From NCBI RefSeq assembly GCF_035944335.1, contig NZ_DASZBG010000012.1, positions 8,612 to 72,611 on the forward strand: a stretch of DNA of 64,000 nt, read 5' to 3'. The DNA is from Phenylobacterium sp. GTDB lineage: Bacteria; Pseudomonadota; Alphaproteobacteria; Caulobacterales; Caulobacteraceae. This document shows, piece by piece, positions 16,358 through 56,690 of the stretch. Numbering within the stretch: position 1 is the first letter of the stretch; every line of letters starts with the position of its first letter. The notes beneath the pieces were generated by a model that worked only from the letters and a program-made list of their open reading frames with translations, did no database searches and was not told the DNA's origin. A program made the position numbers and the translations under genes.

Positions 16358-16382
16358 AACGCCTAGGCCGCGGCCTGGTTCC
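16358..16382 (-). promoter_or_regulatory. EcfG/SigT-type promoter (GGAAC-N16-CGTT) for the entericidin-like gene
   Basis: The plus strand reads AACG-cctaggccgcggcctg-GTTCC. The -35 lies inside the last codons of phyK, and the -10 is about 43 nt upstream of the ATG at 16315. Confidence 0.65.
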
Positions 16383-18084
16383 CGTCCCCGGCCTCCGGAC
16401 GCTCCGGAAGCGCCGCCGGATTGGGGAAGGTCAGGCGCGCGGTGATCCCGCCCGAGGAGTTGCGCACCAGGTCGGCGTGGCCGCGCAGCTGGCGGGCGAA
16501 GGCGGTCATCAAGGTGCGGCCGACTCCGGAGGAGACCAGCGCATCGTCCGGCGCCTGGCCGTCGTCGCTTATCTCCAGCTCCGCCTCCTCGCCGCGGACG
16601 CGGAAGTTGACGGTCAGGACGCCGCCGCGTTCGCGGAAGGCGTGCTTCTGGGCGTTGGTGATCGCCTCGACCGCGAACAGCGCGAGCGGCGCCAGCCGGT
16701 CTGGATCGATGACCAACGCGTCAACCGCCAGCACGGTCTGTACGGCCGGCCCGTGCAGCATCTCGCCGGTCACCAGCTGGGCGGTCAGCTCCTCGAGGAA
16801 CGGCCGCAGGTCGACGCGCTTCAGATCGGGGCCCTGGTAGAGCGCCCGGTAGATTAGGGCGAGCGCGGTGATCCGCTGGCGGGTGTCGCTCATCGCCGCC
16901 CGCGCGGCCGGGTCGGTGAGCGAGCGCTGCTGCATGTTGAGCAGGGACGAGATGACCTGCAGGTTGTTCTTCACCCGGTGGTGGATTTCGCGCATCAGCG
17001 CGTCCTTCTGGGCCAGGGAATCCCGCAGGCTGGCGTCTCGGCCGACTATGGCGTCGGCCATGTCCTCCAGGGTCTCGGCCAGTTCGCGGATCTCCGGCGG
17101 CATCTGGTCGGCCTGGACCGGCCGCACGCTGAGGCGGCCGCGCGCGTAGAGCGAGGCGATCCGCTGCAGGTAGGCGATCCAGCGCACCACCACCTGCTCG
17201 GTGACCACCGTCACCGCCGTCAGCGCCAGGGCGAAGGTCAGGAGCGGGAAGACGATGCCGGATAGTGGGTTCAGCCAGGCCCAGGATAGCAGGCCGGGCG
17301 AGCGGGCGGAGAGCACCACATAGACGGCCTCGCCGACCACCGGCGCGGCGGAGAAGACCCTGCGCTGGCCGCCGGCGTCGCGGTCGTACCAGACGTAGGA
17401 GCCCTGGGCGCGGGTGCGGGCGCGCCAATCGGCCGGCAGGGTGGTGAAGGCCTTCGGATTGGTCGCGGTGATATAGCGGCCGCTCGGGTCGGCCAGCGCC
17501 ACCTCGGAATGGGCCGGCAGGATCGGATCGGCGACCGAGGGCTCCAGGCTGTTCAGCCGGATCACCGCGACGAAGGCGCCGTCGAAGCGCCCATCGGGGG
17601 CGGCGGCGCGGACCGCGGCCAGCACCGCGGGCTCCTGGGCGTAGGGCGAGCCGGGATCGCGGGTGATGACCAGCGGTTGGCCGACCGAGAGCTGCTGGAA
17701 CCAGGGGCGCATCGCGCGCTGTTCGTCGGCGGGGACGTCGCCGGCGGCGCAGGCCACCCGCCCGCGGCTGTCGAAGCGGATCAGGTTGGCGTAGCCCGGG
17801 ATACGCTGGGTGACCTCCGCCAGCCGCTGGGCGCACTGGAAGCCCACAGACCCGGGCGCCAGCGTCTGCAGCAGGATGTCGGCCGCCTCCATCCGCGCGC
17901 GCGCGGTGGCGGCGCTGCGCTCAGCGGCGAAGCCGAGGTTGCGGCGCAGGTCGACCCGCTCACGGTTGAAGGCGATCGCCGATTGCAGGATGCCAAGCAG
18001 CAGCACCGGCAGCAATGCTGCCGCCAGGGCCAGCGTCAAGCGGACCCGGATGGTGCTCAAGGATGCCCAGGGCAGGCCGGCCAT
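16363..18084 (-). CDS. phyK: Membrane sensor histidine kinase of the HisKA_2 family; positional PhyK (PhyR kinase)
   Basis: Two TM segments flank a ~250-aa periplasmic domain. The H-box is EIHHRVKNNLQVISSLLNMQ, followed by a HATPase domain. It starts 19 nt downstream of the sigT stop. Confidence 0.8.
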   Translation of the reverse strand: MAGLPWASLSTIRVRLTLALAAALLPVLLLGILQSAIAFNRERVDLRRNLGFAAERSAATARARMEAADILLQTLAPGSVGFQCAQRLAEVTQRIPGYANLIRFDSRGRVACAAGDVPADEQRAMRPWFQQLSVGQPLVITRDPGSPYAQEPAVLAAVRAAAPDGRFDGAFVAVIRLNSLEPSVADPILPAHSEVALADPSGRYITATNPKAFTTLPADWRARTRAQGSYVWYDRDAGGQRRVFSAAPVVGEAVYVVLSARSPGLLSWAWLNPLSGIVFPLLTFALALTAVTVVTEQVVVRWIAYLQRIASLYARGRLSVRPVQADQMPPEIRELAETLEDMADAIVGRDASLRDSLAQKDALMREIHHRVKNNLQVISSLLNMQQRSLTDPAARAAMSDTRQRITALALIYRALYQGPDLKRVDLRPFLEELTAQLVTGEMLHGPAVQTVLAVDALVIDPDRLAPLALFAVEAITNAQKHAFRERGGVLTVNFRVRGEEAELEISDDGQAPDDALVSSGVGRTLMTAFARQLRGHADLVRNSSGGITARLTFPNPAALPERPEAGDGNQAAA

Positions 18085-18103: not shown

Positions 18104-18715
18104 TCACCGGACGGTGCTTAGCCGCTCCGCATCGGCGAGGATAGAGCGCATTGCTTCGCTCGCCGGCTCCCCGTCGCGGTCGTAGTCCCCGCCCTCGAGG
18201 ATCGCATGCAGCGCCCGGCGCGCCCGGCTCACCCGGCTCTTCACCGTGCCCACCGCGCAGCCGCAGATGTCGGCCGCCTCTTCGTAGGCGAAGCCGCCGG
18301 CGCCCACCAGGATCAGCGCTTCGCGCTGTTCGGGCGGCAGCATGGCCAGGCCCTGGCGCAGTTCGTCCAGCGCCACCGGGGCTTCCGGATCGTCCACCGC
18401 CACCAGGGTCCGCTCGGCGGCCTCCTGGTCGAGCTGGCTCTGGCGCCAGGAGCGGCGCTTCTCGGAATAGAACTGGTTGCGCAGAATCATGAAGGTCCAG
18501 GCCTTCATGTTGGTGCCCATCTGGAAGCTCGCCCGGGCGTCCCAGGCCTTCATCATCGCGTCCTGGGCGAGGTCGTCGGCCGCCGCGGGGTCGCCGCAGA
18601 GGGTGCGCGCAAAGGCCCGCAGGTGCGGGATGAGCTGCACGAGCTCGCGCTTGAAGGCTTCGTCGTCGGGCCGGGGCTCCGAGGACGGCGCCCGCTGTGG
18701 CTGGGCCTCGGGCAT
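18104..18715 (-). CDS. sigT: ECF sigma factor of the EcfG group (general stress response sigma)
   Basis: 203 aa with sigma-70 regions 2 and 4 (LIPHLRAFARTLCGDPAAADDLAQDAMMKAW; REALILVGAGGFAYEEAADICGCAVGTVKSRVSRAR). Its ATG overlaps the nepR stop (TGATG). Confidence 0.9.
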   Translation of the reverse strand: MPEAQPQRAPSSEPRPDDEAFKRELVQLIPHLRAFARTLCGDPAAADDLAQDAMMKAWDARASFQMGTNMKAWTFMILRNQFYSEKRRSWRQSQLDQEAAERTLVAVDDPEAPVALDELRQGLAMLPPEQREALILVGAGGFAYEEAADICGCAVGTVKSRVSRARRALHAILEGGDYDRDGEPASEAMRSILADAERLSTVR

Positions 18716-18903
18716 CAGCCCTTCTCCGAGGCGCGGCTGTCGGCCTTGCGCAGGATGTCGAGGAATTCGTCCGGGACGTCCTCGTTGACCACCTGGTCGA
18801 ACATCTGTCGCAGGCGCACGCCAATCGCCTGCTGGCGCAGGCGGGCTTCGTCCAGGGCGGCGGACGACTTGCGTCGTTCGCCAGGAGGCCGTTGTTCTAT
18901 CAT
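18715..18903 (-). CDS. nepR: Anti-sigma factor NepR
   Basis: C-terminal motif RLRQMFDQVVNEDVPDEFLDILRKAD. The start is set at ATG 18903 (62 aa) because the track TTG start at 18963 overlaps the -10 box of its own promoter. Confidence 0.8.
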   Translation of the reverse strand: MIEQRPPGERRKSSAALDEARLRQQAIGVRLRQMFDQVVNEDVPDEFLDILRKADSRASEKG

Positions 18904-18961
18904 GTTACTGGCGTGCCGCTCTCGCGGCGGCCGCCCCCTCTTGGCATTCTCGTTGTCGCTC

Positions 18962-18986
18962 AACGTCCGACTCCGCGCCAGGTTCC
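18962..18986 (-). promoter_or_regulatory. EcfG/SigT-type promoter (GGAAC-N16-CGTT) for nepR-sigT-phyK
   Basis: The plus strand reads AACG-tccgactccgcgccag-GTTCC. This is the classic autoregulated promoter position. Confidence 0.8.
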
Positions 18987-19129: not shown

Positions 19130-19930
19130 TTGAGTCTACTCGCTCGCCTCGCGCCGCATCTGCCTTACGTGCGCCGGTACGCCCGCGCGCTCACCGGGGA
19201 CCAGACGACCGGCGACCACTACGTCCGCGTGGCGCTCGAAGCGCTGGCCGCCGGCGAACGCGTGCTCGATCCCGGCCTGACCCCGCGCGTGGCGCTCTAT
19301 CACGTGTTCCACGCCATCTGGTGCTCCTCCGGCGCCCAACTCGAAGGCCCGACCGACGAGGACCTGGCGACTGACGACACCACGCGGCGCCTGATGCGGA
19401 TCGCCCCGCGCTCGCGCCAGGCGTTCCTGCTGACCGCCCTGGAAGGCTTCACCCCCTCCGAAGCCGCGCAGATCCTGGGCGCCGACTTCTCCGAGGTCGA
19501 GCAACTGATCGCCGAGGCGCAGACCGAGATCGACGCCGAACTCGCGACGGACGTCCTGATCATCGAGGATGAGCCGGTGATCGCGGCCGACATCGAGGCG
19601 CTGGTCAAGGAACTCGGCCACTCGGTGGTCGATATCGCCGCCACCCGCACCGAGGCCATCGACGCGGTAGCCCGCAAGACGCCAGGCCTCGTCCTGGCCG
19701 ACATCCAGCTGGCCGATGGCTCCTCGGGCATCGATGCGGTGAAGGATATCCTGGCGCGCTTCGACGTGCCGGTGATCTTCATCACCGCCTTCCCCGAGCG
19801 CCTGCTGACCGGCGAGCGGCCGGAGCCCACCTTCCTGATCACCAAGCCCTTCCAGCCGGAAACGGTGAAGGCGGCGATCGGCCAGGCGCTGTTCTTCCAT
19901 CCGCGCAAAGCCTCGAAACAGGCGGCCTGA
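19130..19930 (+). CDS. phyR: Anti-anti-sigma factor / response regulator PhyR
   Basis: TTG start preceded by GGGAGGGG. The protein begins (M)SLLARLAPHLPYVRRYARALTGDQ with a sigma-like N-terminal domain, followed by a C-terminal receiver (LIIEDEP...LADIQLADG...ITKPF). The upstream 300 aa of the 574-aa track ORF is an artefact. Confidence 0.9.
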   Translation: MSLLARLAPHLPYVRRYARALTGDQTTGDHYVRVALEALAAGERVLDPGLTPRVALYHVFHAIWCSSGAQLEGPTDEDLATDDTTRRLMRIAPRSRQAFLLTALEGFTPSEAAQILGADFSEVEQLIAEAQTEIDAELATDVLIIEDEPVIAADIEALVKELGHSVVDIAATRTEAIDAVARKTPGLVLADIQLADGSSGIDAVKDILARFDVPVIFITAFPERLLTGERPEPTFLITKPFQPETVKAAIGQALFFHPRKASKQAA

Positions 19931-20263: not shown

Positions 20264-20557
20264 TCACGATGGCGGATTGCCGCCGTTCTGCGGGGCGAGC
20301 GGGCCGCCCTTCTGATAGTTCTGCCGGCTCGCCGCGTCGGGGCGCGGCGCGGCGAAGGGGGCGGCGCCGGCGGCCTGGGCGGTGTTCTTCGCATCGGCCG
20401 ACCCGAAGTCGCCCGCCTTCCAGGCCCAGGTGGCGGCGAAGCCGAGCACGGTCAGGGCGATCCCGAACACCAGCACCCAGAAGATGTTGCGACCGGTCCG
20501 GCCCTGCCGGGCGCGGGTGGCGCCGACGGTCTGTCCGTCGTCTTGCGAATAGGCCAT
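20264..20557 (-). CDS. Hypothetical single-pass membrane protein (97 aa)
   Basis: MAYSQDDGQTVGATRARQGRTGRNIFWVLVFGIALTVLGFAATWAW has one TM segment. SD AGGAGG lies upstream, GC3 is high, and the gene is downstream of an EcfG promoter. Confidence 0.6.
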   Translation of the reverse strand: MAYSQDDGQTVGATRARQGRTGRNIFWVLVFGIALTVLGFAATWAWKAGDFGSADAKNTAQAAGAAPFAAPRPDAASRQNYQKGGPLAPQNGGNPPS

Positions 20558-20572: not shown

Positions 20573-20782
20573 CTACTGGTGTGGGAAATAGCTGAACGGG
20601 CCAGTCGTGATCTTCGCCACGACGGCGGCCTTGGGTGAGGTGAGGGTGCCGATCAGGCCGCTGGCGAGCGCCAGGCCGAGCACGGCGCAGATCACCATCA
20701 ACCGCCGTCGCGCGGCCTGCTGGCGATAGTTCGGCGTCTTCATCAGGGCGAAGCCGCCGCGGAATCCGTAGCCTGAGCGCAT
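20573..20782 (-). CDS. Hypothetical small membrane protein (69 aa)
   Basis: Only the 3' part of the 177-aa track ORF is used. The start is at MRSGYGFRGGFALMKTPNYRQQAARRRLMVICAVLGLALASGL, with SD GGGAGGG 7 nt upstream, about 38 nt after the predicted TSS. Confidence 0.5.
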   Translation of the reverse strand: MRSGYGFRGGFALMKTPNYRQQAARRRLMVICAVLGLALASGLIGTLTSPKAAVVAKITTGPFSYFPHQ

Positions 20783-20828
20783 TGGCGAGCCCTCCCTCGC
20801 GCGGGGTCCCTTCGCCCGCCAAGGTTTC

Positions 20829-20854
20829 AACGCCTCGCCTGCGCGGGACGTTCC
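20829..20854 (-). promoter_or_regulatory. EcfG/SigT-type promoter (GGAAC-N17-CGTT)
   Basis: The plus strand reads AACG-cctcgcctgcgcgggac-GTTCC, oriented toward the two small membrane-protein genes. Confidence 0.65.
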
Positions 20855-21037
20855 CTGCCGCAGGGCCGCCATGGCCAGGCCTCCAGAAAGTCTTGATCTT
20901 TCAACACCTGCGGACGAGTCTTGCGCCGGCCGGGACGTGCTGCCGCCGCGTCGGGCGCTCGGTGAACCGCCGCGATGTATTTTTTTCGAAAAAAGTGGGG
21001 CGATGGCGGAACGCACTCGTGGGAGTGCGTGTTTAGT

Positions 21038-21161
21038 CGAGTGCGGAGGCGGCGACGCCCCCCCCGACTTGAGACTGGCGAGCATGCCAGTCTGCCGTCT
21101 CCGCACCCCTTTTCTCGATGATGCACACCTCAGGCGGGCCCCAGGGCCCGCCCTTTCTTTT
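21038..21161 (+). ncRNA. Candidate GSR-dependent small RNA (GsrN-like); 5' end approximate
   Basis: The ~320-nt gap has no credible CDS. GGAAC at 21009 has an imperfect -10 (N15-CGTG or N17-TGTT). A 13-bp stem (21042-21054 / 21094-21106) encloses an unpaired 7-C tract (21059-21065) and an inner 8-bp hairpin, and is followed by TTTT. A second GC hairpin (21133-21152) is followed by TTTCTTTT. Confidence 0.4.
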
Positions 21162-21178
21162 GCGCTCGCGCTTTCGAC

Positions 21179-21622
21179 CTAGCGCGGAGCGAGGTGCAGG
21201 GTCACGTCGGCGCGGCGGCGCAGGGGCGCGGCCTGACCGCCTGAGGTCACGGCGCCCGCCTGGCCGGCGGCCGTCATCTTGAATTCGGCGGACGGCAGGC
21301 CGTTGGCGGCGAGGGCGGCGGTCACCGACTGGGCCCGGCGGCGCGAGAGCTCGAGGTTGGCGCCCGCCTGGCCGGCCCCGTCCGCCAGCCCGAGTACGTC
21401 CACGCCGAGGATCTTGCAGGCCCGGGTGTTGGAGGCGGCCTGGGCGATCACCATGCGGCCCTCCGGCGTCAGCTCGGCCTGGTCGGGCGCGAAGTAGATC
21501 TGCACCGTCTGGTCCTCGCAACGCGGCGTCGCCTTCACCAGCCGCGCGCGAGCGGTCTGCATGGTCGCACAGCCGCCCAGGGCCATCGCGGCCGCGGCCG
21601 TCAAGAGCAGCGCCGTTCTCAT
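21179..21622 (-). CDS. OmpA-domain lipoprotein (peptidoglycan-associated, 147 aa)
   Basis: The start is at MRTALLLTAAAAMALGGC (lipobox), with SD GGAGGGGAAG upstream. The C-terminal OmpA-like motif is GLADGAGQAGANLELSRRRAQSV. Confidence 0.8.
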   Translation of the reverse strand: MRTALLLTAAAAMALGGCATMQTARARLVKATPRCEDQTVQIYFAPDQAELTPEGRMVIAQAASNTRACKILGVDVLGLADGAGQAGANLELSRRRAQSVTAALAANGLPSAEFKMTAAGQAGAVTSGGQAAPLRRRADVTLHLAPR

Positions 21623-21707
21623 CGTCTTCCCCTCCAGCCCGCTAGCGGGCGCGCCAAAGGGCGGCCGGAAAATCCGACCGCCCCTGACATCTCGGTGTCG
21701 GCGTCGC

Positions 21708-22058
21708 CTAGTAGCGCGGCGAGCCGTCTTCCCAGAAGTACCGGCCCGTGGCCGAGTCGTAGTAGTAATAGCGACCCGCACGGTCGTCATAGTACTGGCG
21801 ACGGTTCGGAGCCGCGGCCGCGCCGCAGCCGCCTTCGTCGTGGCAGCCCTTCACGGCCCCGAGCGAGCCGCCGACGACCGCGCCGATCGCCGCACCGCCC
21901 AGGGTGCTGCCGTGCGCGACGTTGTTCCCGATCACCGCCCCGGCCACAGCGCCGAGCGCTGCGCCGCCGAGGGCCGTGTTGGTGGTGTGCGGGTCGTCAG
22001 CGCAGGCCGCGACCAGTACGCTGGCGCCGGCAAGCGCGATCAATGGCTTGAGCATCAT
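21708..22058 (-). CDS. Glycine-zipper lipoprotein (17-kDa-antigen-like)
   Basis: The start is at MMLKPLIALAGASVLVAAC (lipobox), with SD AAGGAGAG upstream. It has a GxxxG-rich segment GGAALGAVAGAVIGNNVAHGSTLGGAAIGAVVGGSLGAV and a Tyr-rich tail. Confidence 0.75.
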   Translation of the reverse strand: MMLKPLIALAGASVLVAACADDPHTTNTALGGAALGAVAGAVIGNNVAHGSTLGGAAIGAVVGGSLGAVKGCHDEGGCGAAAAPNRRQYYDDRAGRYYYYDSATGRYFWEDGSPRY

Positions 22059-22088: not shown

Positions 22089-22113
22089 AACGCCAGCCCA
22101 ACGCCGCAGTTCC
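22089..22113 (-). promoter_or_regulatory. EcfG/SigT-type promoter (GGAAC-N16-CGTT) for the glycine-zipper / OmpA lipoprotein genes
   Basis: The plus strand reads AACG-ccagcccaacgccgca-GTTCC, about 30 nt upstream of the ATG at 22058. Confidence 0.7.
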
Positions 22114-22129: not shown

Positions 22130-22154
22130 GGAACCTCCACCGTCCCCCACCGTT
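22130..22154 (+). promoter_or_regulatory. EcfG/SigT-type promoter (GGAAC-N16-CGTT) for the 22193-24208 operon
   Basis: GGAAC-ctccaccgtcccccac-CGTT, back-to-back with the minus-strand promoter and about 40 nt upstream of the ATG at 22193. Confidence 0.7.
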
Positions 22155-22192
22155 GGAAGGGCGCAACACCCTTCTCAAGCGGAGCATCTCCC

Positions 22193-22525
22193 ATGGTCGG
22201 CGGACGCCTGAACGACGACACGCGGGCCCCTGACGCCCTCGACAAGGCCGATCTGCGCGAAGCCTATGAGCGTGGCCGGAGCGACGAGCGGGCCCGCCGC
22301 AAGCGCCACCCGATCGGCATGACCCTGACCTTCGCCGCGGCCGCGGTCGGCGTGGCGATGCTGGCCCTGGCCCTGGTGAACGGCTCGTTCGGCGCGGCCG
22401 GCCTCCAGGTCGACCAAGGCCTGCAGATCGCCAAGCCGGTGGCCAGCCAGGCGGCGTCTAACGCCGGCGACCAACTTCGCGACGCCGCCGCCCAGGCGCG
22501 CGCCAAGGCCTCCAACGCCGGCTGA
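22193..22525 (+). CDS. Hypothetical membrane-anchored stress protein (110 aa)
   Basis: A charged N-terminus, one TM segment (MTLTFAAAAVGVAMLALALV) and an Ala/Gln-rich C-terminus. GC3 is high, and the gene is directly downstream of an EcfG promoter. Confidence 0.6.
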   Translation: MVGGRLNDDTRAPDALDKADLREAYERGRSDERARRKRHPIGMTLTFAAAAVGVAMLALALVNGSFGAAGLQVDQGLQIAKPVASQAASNAGDQLRDAAAQARAKASNAG

Positions 22526-22547
22526 TCCCATAGAAGCGCGTAGCCCC

Positions 22548-23414
22548 GTGGGGCGTATCAGCCGCGTCGAGGTCGTGGCGAACCTCGCCTCGGGCGGGGT
22601 GGGCAAGGACGCCGCCACGGAGATCGAGAAGATCCTGGCCGACCACGGCCTGACGGCCCATGTCTGCGCGCCGGAAACCCGCGACCTGACCAACTGCCTG
22701 CGCGCCGCCGTGGACGCGGGTCCCGACCTGCTGGTCACCCTGGCCGGCGACGGGACGGCGCGCGCCGCCGCGGAGCTTTGCGGCCCCCACGGTCCGTTGC
22801 TCGCCACCCTGCCGGGCGGCACCATGAATATGCTGCCGCGCGCCCTTTACGGGACACGCTCCTGGCAGGACGCGCTCAACGTCGCCTTGTCCGAGGGCGA
22901 GAGGCGCACCATCGGCGGCGGCGAGGTGGAGGGGAATACTTTCCTGGTGGCTGCGGTGCTCGGTTCGCCCGCGCTCTGGGGCGCCGCGCGCGAGGCCGCC
23001 CGCTACCACGAGCCGATCCTGGCCCTGGCGCGCGCCCGCCGCGCGCTACGCCGCGCCTTCACCGGGCGGCTCCGCTACGCCTTCGACGGCGGTGTGGCGG
23101 ACAAGGCCGAAGCCCTGGTGTTCATGTGCCCTCTGGTTTCACGCGTGATGGCCGACGAGGAGGCCGCCCTGGAGGCCGCCGCCCTCGACGTGCGCGGCGC
23201 GGCCGACGCCTTCCGGCTGGGGATCAACGCCCTGGTGCGCGACTGGCGCGACGACCCGGCGGTGGAGTCCCGCCACGCCCGCTCGACGCGGGTCTGGGCA
23301 GCCAGCCGCATCCCAGCCCTGCTCGACGGCGAGCTGGTGCGCCTGCACAGCGCCGCCGAGGTGGTCTATCGTCCGGCGGTGGCGCGCATGCTGGCCATCC
23401 CCAAGGACACCTGA
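22548..23414 (+). CDS. Diacylglycerol/lipid kinase catalytic-domain protein (YegS/BmrU-like)
   Basis: VVANLASGG...LLVTLAGDGT...LPGGTMNMLPRAL is the DAGK_cat signature. It lies 22 nt after the preceding gene. Confidence 0.8.
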   Translation: MGRISRVEVVANLASGGVGKDAATEIEKILADHGLTAHVCAPETRDLTNCLRAAVDAGPDLLVTLAGDGTARAAAELCGPHGPLLATLPGGTMNMLPRALYGTRSWQDALNVALSEGERRTIGGGEVEGNTFLVAAVLGSPALWGAAREAARYHEPILALARARRALRRAFTGRLRYAFDGGVADKAEALVFMCPLVSRVMADEEAALEAAALDVRGAADAFRLGINALVRDWRDDPAVESRHARSTRVWAASRIPALLDGELVRLHSAAEVVYRPAVARMLAIPKDT

Positions 23415-24450: not shown

Positions 24451-24476
24451 AACGCCCGCTCAGGCGCGGCCGTTCC
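24451..24476 (-). promoter_or_regulatory. EcfG/SigT-type promoter (GGAAC-N17-CGTT) for the DUF1328 paralog
   Basis: The plus strand reads AACG-cccgctcaggcgcggcc-GTTCC. A 7-bp hairpin (GCAGGTC..GACCTGC, 24424-24441) lies in the predicted 5' UTR. Confidence 0.65.
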
Positions 24477-53563: not shown

Positions 53564-53765
53564 CGATCGCGTCAAAAGACGGCGTAAATTTGTGCGAGCT
53601 CGCGAAATTCTGATCGAGCCTTGCTGCGAAACACCCCGCAAGCCGTTGACTCGGGCAGAAAATTGCCGTTCCTTCACGACGCGAGAGACATGAAGGCATC
53701 AGTCCTGAGGTCTCCGGCGTTTCGGGGAGGAAACGCCCGCTCATTCGAGCGACTGCTCAAGATCA

Positions 53766-53805
53766 GGCCCGCTGCGATTATCCCCCGCGGCGGGCCAAAT
53801 TTTTT
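53766..53805 (+). terminator. Strong intrinsic terminator ~200 nt downstream of hisG
   Basis: 11-bp stem GGCCCGCTGCG / loop ATTATCCCC / CGCGGCGGGCC (one G-U pair), followed by AAATTTTTT. Confidence 0.7.
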
Positions 53806-56665: not shown

Positions 56666-56690
56666 GGAACCAAGCGCAGCCGTGAACGTT
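56666..56690 (+). promoter_or_regulatory. EcfG/SigT-type promoter (GGAAC-N16-CGTT) inside a 630-nt intergenic region
   Basis: GGAAC-caagcgcagccgtgaa-CGTT. The nearest plus-strand annotated gene, the OmpA porin, starts about 460 nt downstream. Confidence 0.55.

Follow-up and report, generated by a model that had tools for sequence, protein, structure and literature searches.

A gsrN-family small RNA in the GSR locus of a Phenylobacterium-like soil bacterium

The closest described relative of the element reported here is GsrN of Caulobacter crescentus, the name given by Tien et al. (2018; PMC5869019) to ccna_R0081, an sRNA of Landt 2008. It is a sigT-dependent RNA of 106 nt, which is processed between C53 and T54 (PMC5869019) and uses a C-rich loop to pair with the katG and osrP leaders (PMC5869019; 10.1101/344820). 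Homologues have been reported in Caulobacter, Brevundimonas and Phenylobacterium, mostly beside ecfG, nepR and phyR, and BLASTn matches of gsrN are limited to the Caulobacteraceae (Tien et al. 2018; PMC5869019). The original prediction for the DNA analysed here, a GsrN-like sRNA in a GSR locus, drew on two points of background, the pairing of the C-rich loop with the katG leader and the position of homologues beside ecfG/nepR/phyR; both agree with Tien et al. (PMC5869019).

The window, which is the whole 64-kb stretch of DNA that was analysed, was scanned with Rfam at the gathering thresholds, and two matches were obtained. The first is to the RF01529 (CC3552) model at 21045-21153 on the plus strand, with 88 bits against a gathering score of 50 and an E-value of 9e-13. 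It covers model positions 1-106 of 106 and is not truncated, so that the covariance-model check suggested with the prediction turned out in its favour. The second is to RF01527 (CrfA), at 53683-53804 on the plus strand, with 54.8 bits against a gathering score of 38, an E-value of 7e-7 and a middle part of the model that is partly matched. CrfA is a carbon-starvation sRNA of Caulobacter.

The name "CC3552" gave no match in a full-text literature search, and the link from this Rfam family to GsrN was made via supplementary sequences of Tien et al., namely those of the probes and of the gene blocks, among them "R0081 tandem A", which contains the locus together with its promoter. RF01529 is equated with GsrN because the gene block for ccna_R0081 (supplementary file 12) aligns to the window and folds alike. 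The two sequences share 94 identical positions of 112-120; in the 5' half the count is 55 of 61, and the predicted fold is the same. A contig of C. vibrioides DSM 9893, found by the pattern scan described below, agrees with this alignment. Together with the conserved promoter and the GSR neighbours, these results uphold the proposed GsrN-like sRNA. The following feature is very probably the gsrN gene of a Phenylobacterium-like soil bacterium, orthologous to C. crescentus GsrN (RF01529):

21043 to 21160 (approximate), plus strand: predicted gsrN transcript of about 118 nt, with the 5' end placed by homology (to about 2 nt either way) and the 3' end in the U tail

The element is an ordinary member of a described sRNA family. 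It is already known in this sense, and standard Rfam annotation would label it. The RNA fold of 21040-21165 has a minimum free energy (MFE) of -61.5 kcal/mol and a z-score of -4.48, and none of 200 dinucleotide shuffles folds as well.

An exact 19-mer scan with CCCCCGACTTGAGACTGGC, using one genome per species, yielded 83 stretches. Eighty of them are true homologues from Phenylobacterium, Brevundimonas, Caulobacter or unclassified Caulobacterales MAGs, the closest being that of Phenylobacterium terrae (95%). The other three (L007, L038 and L046) are unrelated coding sequences from other phyla that match by chance, and they were left out. An alignment of 79 sequences (A1) was scored against the window's own MFE structure. 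In this alignment, 96.7% of the cells are paired, and double-sided changes occur at 9 of the 29 pairs, over 64 cells. None of 500 column shuffles reached the observed pairing values, and in controls with the partner slid by 1-3 columns only 33-51% of the cells pair. RNAalifold, to which the structure was not supplied, returned the same three helices. The proposed check of folding and covariation across related genomes thus supports the stems. Much of the 5' domain does not vary, and the 19-mer used for the search predetermined part of the loop and the 5' arm of the inner hairpin; the informative covariation therefore lies in the outer stem and, above all, in the terminator, where 6 of the 8 pairs show double-sided compensatory changes.

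The gap that holds the element is bounded by a small minus-strand ORF ending at 20782 and by an OmpA-like gene (21179-21790, minus strand). Three ORFs exist mechanically in and around the conserved block, at 20871-21182 (plus strand, 103 aa), 20975-21121 (plus strand, 48 aa) and 20827-21126 (minus strand, 99 aa), and the block could be imagined as the gene of a small protein. This has practically no chance of being correct. The two longer ORFs, 20871-21182 and 20827-21126, have no Pfam match, and the region has about 70% G+C, where spurious long ORFs are expected. Conservation tracks the helices, not codons. Moreover, the homologues differ within the block by indels of 1, 2 and 4 nt (in the C-tract of 6-10 residues, the apical loop and the linker), which would shift any frame and exclude a coding function. 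The gap is therefore free of a credible CDS, as had been predicted, and the sRNA reading is retained.

The 5' domain of the predicted RNA is made up of the following parts:

21043 to 21053, plus strand: 5' arm of the outer stem, GCGGAGGCGGC, pairing with 21094-21104
21054 to 21071, plus strand: C-rich loop GACGCCCCCCCCGACUUG, unpaired and conserved, the predicted target-recognition (seed) region
21072 to 21093, plus strand: inner hairpin AGACUGGC-GAGCAU-GCCAGUCU, paired in all homologues
21094 to 21104, plus strand: 3' arm of the outer stem, GCCGUCUCCGC, supported by covariation and by the C. crescentus alignment

A 5' stem enclosing an exposed C-rich loop and an inner hairpin is the arrangement of the GsrN family, and it is found here both in the MFE structure and in the RNAalifold consensus. 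On the DNA, the full stem GTGCGGAGGCGGC (21041-21053) / GCCGTCTCCGCAC (21094-21106) comprises 13 pairs, one of them G.U. The 13-bp stem of the original prediction is thus present, and its inner 8-bp hairpin is exact; the C-tract was given as seven residues and has eight (21058-21065). The transcript probably starts near 21043, judging from the mapped start of its C. crescentus homologue, and the first two bases of the 13-bp stem would then not be transcribed. In C. crescentus, the +1 position was placed at the G after the T in TGCGAAGG, from the numbering of the RT primers (18-36 and 72-89) and the RACE ends T54 and T64. The supplementary oligonucleotides of Tien et al. are numbered with a discrepancy of 2 nt among them, and the majority numbering (RT primers and RACE ends) was used. 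With a +1 position at about 21043 by homology, the transcribed stem has 11 bp. Consistent with the first two bases of the stem being untranscribed, only 15 of 72 homologues retain the outermost pair, 21041/21106.

The 5' arm of the outer stem has a mean unpaired probability of 0.001, and the stem carries compensatory changes of GC to AU or the reverse at two pairs and of CG to UA at one. By homology, the processing site of C. crescentus (C53/T54) corresponds to a position in the 3' arm of this stem. The C-rich loop has a mean unpaired probability of 0.865 and is invariant among the homologues except for the length of the C-tract, an invariance partly imposed by the search pattern. The arms of the inner hairpin, AGACTGGC (21072-21079) and GCCAGTCT (21086-21093), are paired in 100% of the cells of the 79 sequences, with one-sided (G.U) changes only, while the apical loop varies in length and sequence. 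Among the homologues, the C-tract has six residues in 6 sequences, seven in 27, eight in 41, nine in 3 and ten in 2. The longer tracts are those of Phenylobacterium, the shorter ones those of Caulobacter and Brevundimonas.

The 3' part of the element consists of a linker and a terminator:

21105 to 21132, plus strand: single-stranded linker with the conserved UUUUCUCGAUGAUGCA (mean unpaired probability 0.875)
21133 to 21162, plus strand: intrinsic terminator, an 8-bp all-GC stem with a 4-nt loop, then CTTTCTTTTG, found by a terminator scan

Within the linker, UUUUCUCGAUGAUGCA (21109-21125; also UCUCGAUGAUGC) is near-invariant in Phenylobacterium and Brevundimonas and different in Caulobacter. 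The second RACE end of C. crescentus, T64, maps to the homologous U-rich stretch. The linker could be a second functional site, for example an Hfq or RNase site or a second seed. The terminator hairpin is GGCGGGCC-CCAG-GGCCCGCC (21133-21152), and it gives the predicted RNA a Rho-independent end at a length of about 118 nt, in the range of the roughly 100 nt expected of the family. Two plus-strand terminator-like structures had been predicted in the gap. The second is indeed the terminator, as recognised by the scan; the first is not a terminator and corresponds to the 5' functional domain of the sRNA.

Since the 3' hairpin lies 27 nt from the stop codon of the OmpA-like gene, the hairpins might merely be terminators or structural elements of the flanking convergent genes, or copies of a dispersed intergenic repeat, with no transcript of their own. 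A single contig (X34) of one RNA run, which covers a gsrN homologue together with the neighbouring gene, would also fit this explanation. It is nevertheless extremely improbable. After the hairpin there is no T-run on the minus strand, the T tail being on the plus strand, and a conserved EcfG promoter stands at a fixed distance of 7-8 nt upstream. With one copy in the window and one at the syntenic place of each locus, the element does not form a repeat family. In addition, C. crescentus GsrN is a mapped independent transcript (PMC5869019). An independent sRNA that ends at this terminator remains the preferred reading.

The gsrN and OmpA-like genes are convergent, the latter having its stop codon at 21179 on the minus strand, and 50 loci retain this orientation. 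The hairpin they share has its T tail on the plus strand only, and minus-strand transcripts might therefore run on across gsrN in antisense. In several relatives (loci L004, L033, L050, L056 and L081), the gsrN terminator hairpin is repeated about 15-25 nt downstream in a tandem, terminator-like manner that is not seen in the window.

Upstream of the transcript lie the elements of a promoter and an A/T-rich sequence:

20981 to 20994, plus strand: A/T-rich upstream element, palindrome TTTTTTCGAAAAAA, recognised from the sequence and a conserved A-tract
21008 to 21012, plus strand: -35 element GGAAC of an EcfG/SigT-type promoter, conserved in the homologues
21030 to 21033, plus strand: -10 element TGTT, at a spacing of 17 nt from GGAAC and of the form NGTT among the homologues

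GGAAC-N17-TGTT is a near-consensus EcfG/SigT site whose first -10 base deviates from C. No sigma-70-like promoter was found in the gsrN gap. In C. crescentus, the gsrN promoter is sigT-dependent (PMC5869019), and its layout on the gene block is an A-tract, GGAAC-N16-CGTT, 7 nt and TGCGAAGG. Seventy-five of 76 homologues carry GGAAC, 32-34 nt 5' of the T of TGCGGAGG; the -10 element follows after 16 nt in 66 homologues and after 17 nt in 9, the window being among the latter, and it ends 7-8 nt before the same T. Among 75 homologues the -10 element is TGTT in 37, CGTT in 26, GGTT in 6 and AGTT in 6. The original prediction had described GGAAC with an imperfect -10 element, either N15-CGTG or N17-TGTT. 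Both are present, the former at 21028-21031, and GGAAC itself starts at 21008 rather than at 21009. As TGTT is the most frequent variant, the supposedly imperfect -10 element of the window is the form that prevails in the family.

The TGTT element and the 17-nt spacer are unlike the C. crescentus promoter, the loop has eight C residues, and the length of the C-tract differs between genera. From these features one might suppose that the copy in this lineage is a relic derived from gsrN or a divergent paralogue, and that it has lost its dependence on SigT or acquired other targets. Such a history is very unlikely. TGTT is the commonest -10 element of the family, and the longer spacer recurs in the closest relatives (L006, L031, L056 and L082). 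The window copy retains an intact promoter, fold and terminator, and its 5' domain is nearly the same as the functional one of C. crescentus. An intact gsrN orthologue accounts for these observations.

The predicted AT palindrome is present as well. Its perfect form is the 14-mer TTTTTTCGAAAAAA at 20981-20994; the 15-mer that had been quoted (T7-CG-A6) occupies 20980-20994 and, with its extra T, lacks perfect symmetry. Between the A6 half of the palindrome (20989-20994) and the -35 element there are 13 nt. Of 75 homologues, 56 have five or more consecutive A ending 11-15 nt 5' of GGAAC and the other 19 have different A/T-rich runs there; A has a frequency of 77-96% at positions -19 to -14 from GGAAC. 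The C. crescentus gsrN construct carries the same CAAAAAAATCG at the equivalent upstream place. An A-tract or A/T-rich element about 13 nt 5' of the gsrN -35 element is conserved across three genera. The whole 64-kb window contains only 12 runs of at least five A or five T. The phyR promoter has GAAAAAC at a similar distance, and most other EcfG promoters of the window are without such an A-tract. The A/T-rich element is probably a UP-element-like part of the gsrN promoter, to judge by its sequence and position. A further idea is that the A-tract or AT palindrome, centred at about -50, provides extra control (as a UP element or through a second DNA-binding regulator), that the linker UCUCGAUGAUGCA adds a second seed or protein-binding site, and that the length of the C-tract (6-10) could tune the target range. 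This combination is rather unlikely, and no description of it for gsrN was found in the literature examined.

The genes to the left of the gap form a GSR locus:

16363 to 18084, minus strand: HisKA_2/HWE-type sensor kinase, PhyK-like (Pfam HisKA_2, E 6.6e-27)
18104 to 18715, minus strand: ECF sigma factor of the sigT/ecfG type (Pfam Sigma70_r2, Sigma70_r4_2 and Sigma70_ECF)
18715 to 18963, minus strand: anti-sigma factor NepR (Pfam PF18557 NepR, E 5e-15)
19136 to 19930, plus strand: anti-anti-sigma response regulator PhyR (Pfam PhyR_sigma2, PhyR_sigma-like and Response_reg)

Proximity to ecfG/sigT, nepR and phyR is found here and is typical of the gsrN family without being universal. The phyR gene lies upstream of gsrN on the same strand, with 1.1 kb between its stop codon and gsrN. 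In tblastn searches of the homologous loci, PhyR was upstream of gsrN in the same orientation in 65, and most others are cut by the edge of the locus. The ECF sigma gene is directly downstream of nepR, and homologues with 80-96% identity are equivalently placed in 53 loci. By analogy with C. crescentus, its product may be the activator of gsrN. The right-flank genes are syntenic and comprise the OmpA-like gene, a glycine-zipper gene, ORF 22175-22825 and a metallophosphatase gene. The last three are kept beside gsrN in C. vibrioides (L022). This shared flank ties the window copy positionally to C. crescentus gsrN, even though gsrN is away from sigT there.

The motif GGAAC-N16/17-CGTT occurs ten times in the 64-kb window, against 0.68 expected. 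Nine occurrences fall within 16.3-25.4 kb, and the tenth is at 56666-56690. The clustered sites include 16382 (minus strand), 18986 (minus strand) before nepR-sigT and 19027 (plus strand) before phyR. That at 22113 (minus strand) precedes the glycine-zipper and OmpA-like genes, and further sites are at 22130 (plus strand) and at 24476, 25274 and 25349 (all minus strand). The nine clustered EcfG motifs place gsrN in a dense general-stress-regulon island. Between phyR and gsrN, two minus-strand ORFs without a Pfam family (20264-20557 and 20573-20782) encode small predicted membrane proteins of 97 aa and 69 aa. A perfect EcfG motif, GGAAC-N17-CGTT (20854-20829, minus strand), precedes both, and they recur in 44 and 33 homologous loci, respectively.

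A mode of action can be proposed by analogy with C. crescentus (PMC5869019; bioRxiv 10.1101/344820). Under stress, phosphorylated PhyR would sequester NepR and release the ECF sigma factor, which would then transcribe gsrN from the promoter motif seen in the window. The full-length RNA of about 118 nt may be stabilised by Hfq. An endonucleolytic cut in the 3' arm of the outer stem, at about 21099-21100 of the window by homology, would leave a stable 5' isoform of about 55 nt. Its exposed C-rich loop may pair with G-rich 5' leaders such as those of katG and osrP, which would raise their translation or stability and close a coherent feed-forward loop with the sigma factor.

A search for G-rich complementary sites had been recommended with the prediction, for katG and other leaders. 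In the 64-kb window it gave nothing above background: AAGTCGGGGGGG with at most two mismatches has 5 matches against 12 expected by chance, and the sole exact match is the antisense strand of gsrN itself. RNAduplex scanning of both strands of the window with the loop yielded no outlier other than this self-match and none that is notable near a start codon. The leader of the adjacent SigT-type glycine-zipper gene has no obvious complementarity to the gsrN loop. This gene is not osrP, since osrP is CCNA_00882 and encodes 332 aa; katG and osrP are both absent from the 64-kb window. The sequencing runs that contain the window are DNA metagenomes only. Metatranscriptome contigs with near-identical gsrN homologues, which come from relatives, are of low or flat depth and run on into promoter sequence or flanking genes; they do not mark out a transcript and could reflect DNA carry-over.

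A reading of the raw sequence without tools thus recognised a known regulatory RNA correctly. What is gained is a firm annotation of gsrN, its promoter and the surrounding island of EcfG promoters, which marks where the general stress regulon of this uncultured bacterium has its core; no new biological question arises from it. The alignment of 79 sequences goes beyond the comparison already published and draws attention to two conserved features, the A-tract upstream and the linker. Slightly new, in a descriptive sense only, are the upstream A-tract, the near-invariant linker, the genus-specific length of the C-tract and the density of EcfG promoters around gsrN.

Compared with C. crescentus GsrN, the window element has the same outer stem, C-rich loop, inner hairpin, U-rich linker and terminator, and the same promoter plan of A-tract, GGAAC, N16/17 and NGTT. 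It differs in having 8 instead of 6 C residues in the loop and an apical loop of 6 nt instead of 4 nt. The outer stem has a G-C pair where C. crescentus has A-U, which is a compensatory change. The linker is UCUCGAUGAUGCA rather than UUUGUUGAUGCGA, and the promoter has TGTT with a 17-nt spacer in place of CGTT with a 16-nt spacer. The gene also lies inside the GSR locus, whereas it is distal to this locus in C. crescentus, which is the exception in gsrN location according to Tien et al. (PMC5869019). With the gsrN genes of Phenylobacterium and Brevundimonas (Tien et al. 2018, Fig. 9), the element shares the place beside ecfG/nepR/phyR, the 5' C-rich loop and the EcfG-binding site; it is 93-95% identical to the Phenylobacterium copies and shows no substantial difference from them. 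GsrN-like sRNAs proposed in Rhizobiaceae and Brucella (Fig. 9C) resemble it in their EcfG-type promoter, their proximity to the GSR locus and an exposed loop in the 5' stem-loop. Those candidates are without detectable sequence similarity and were proposed by position only, whereas the element in the window belongs to the family at the level of its sequence.
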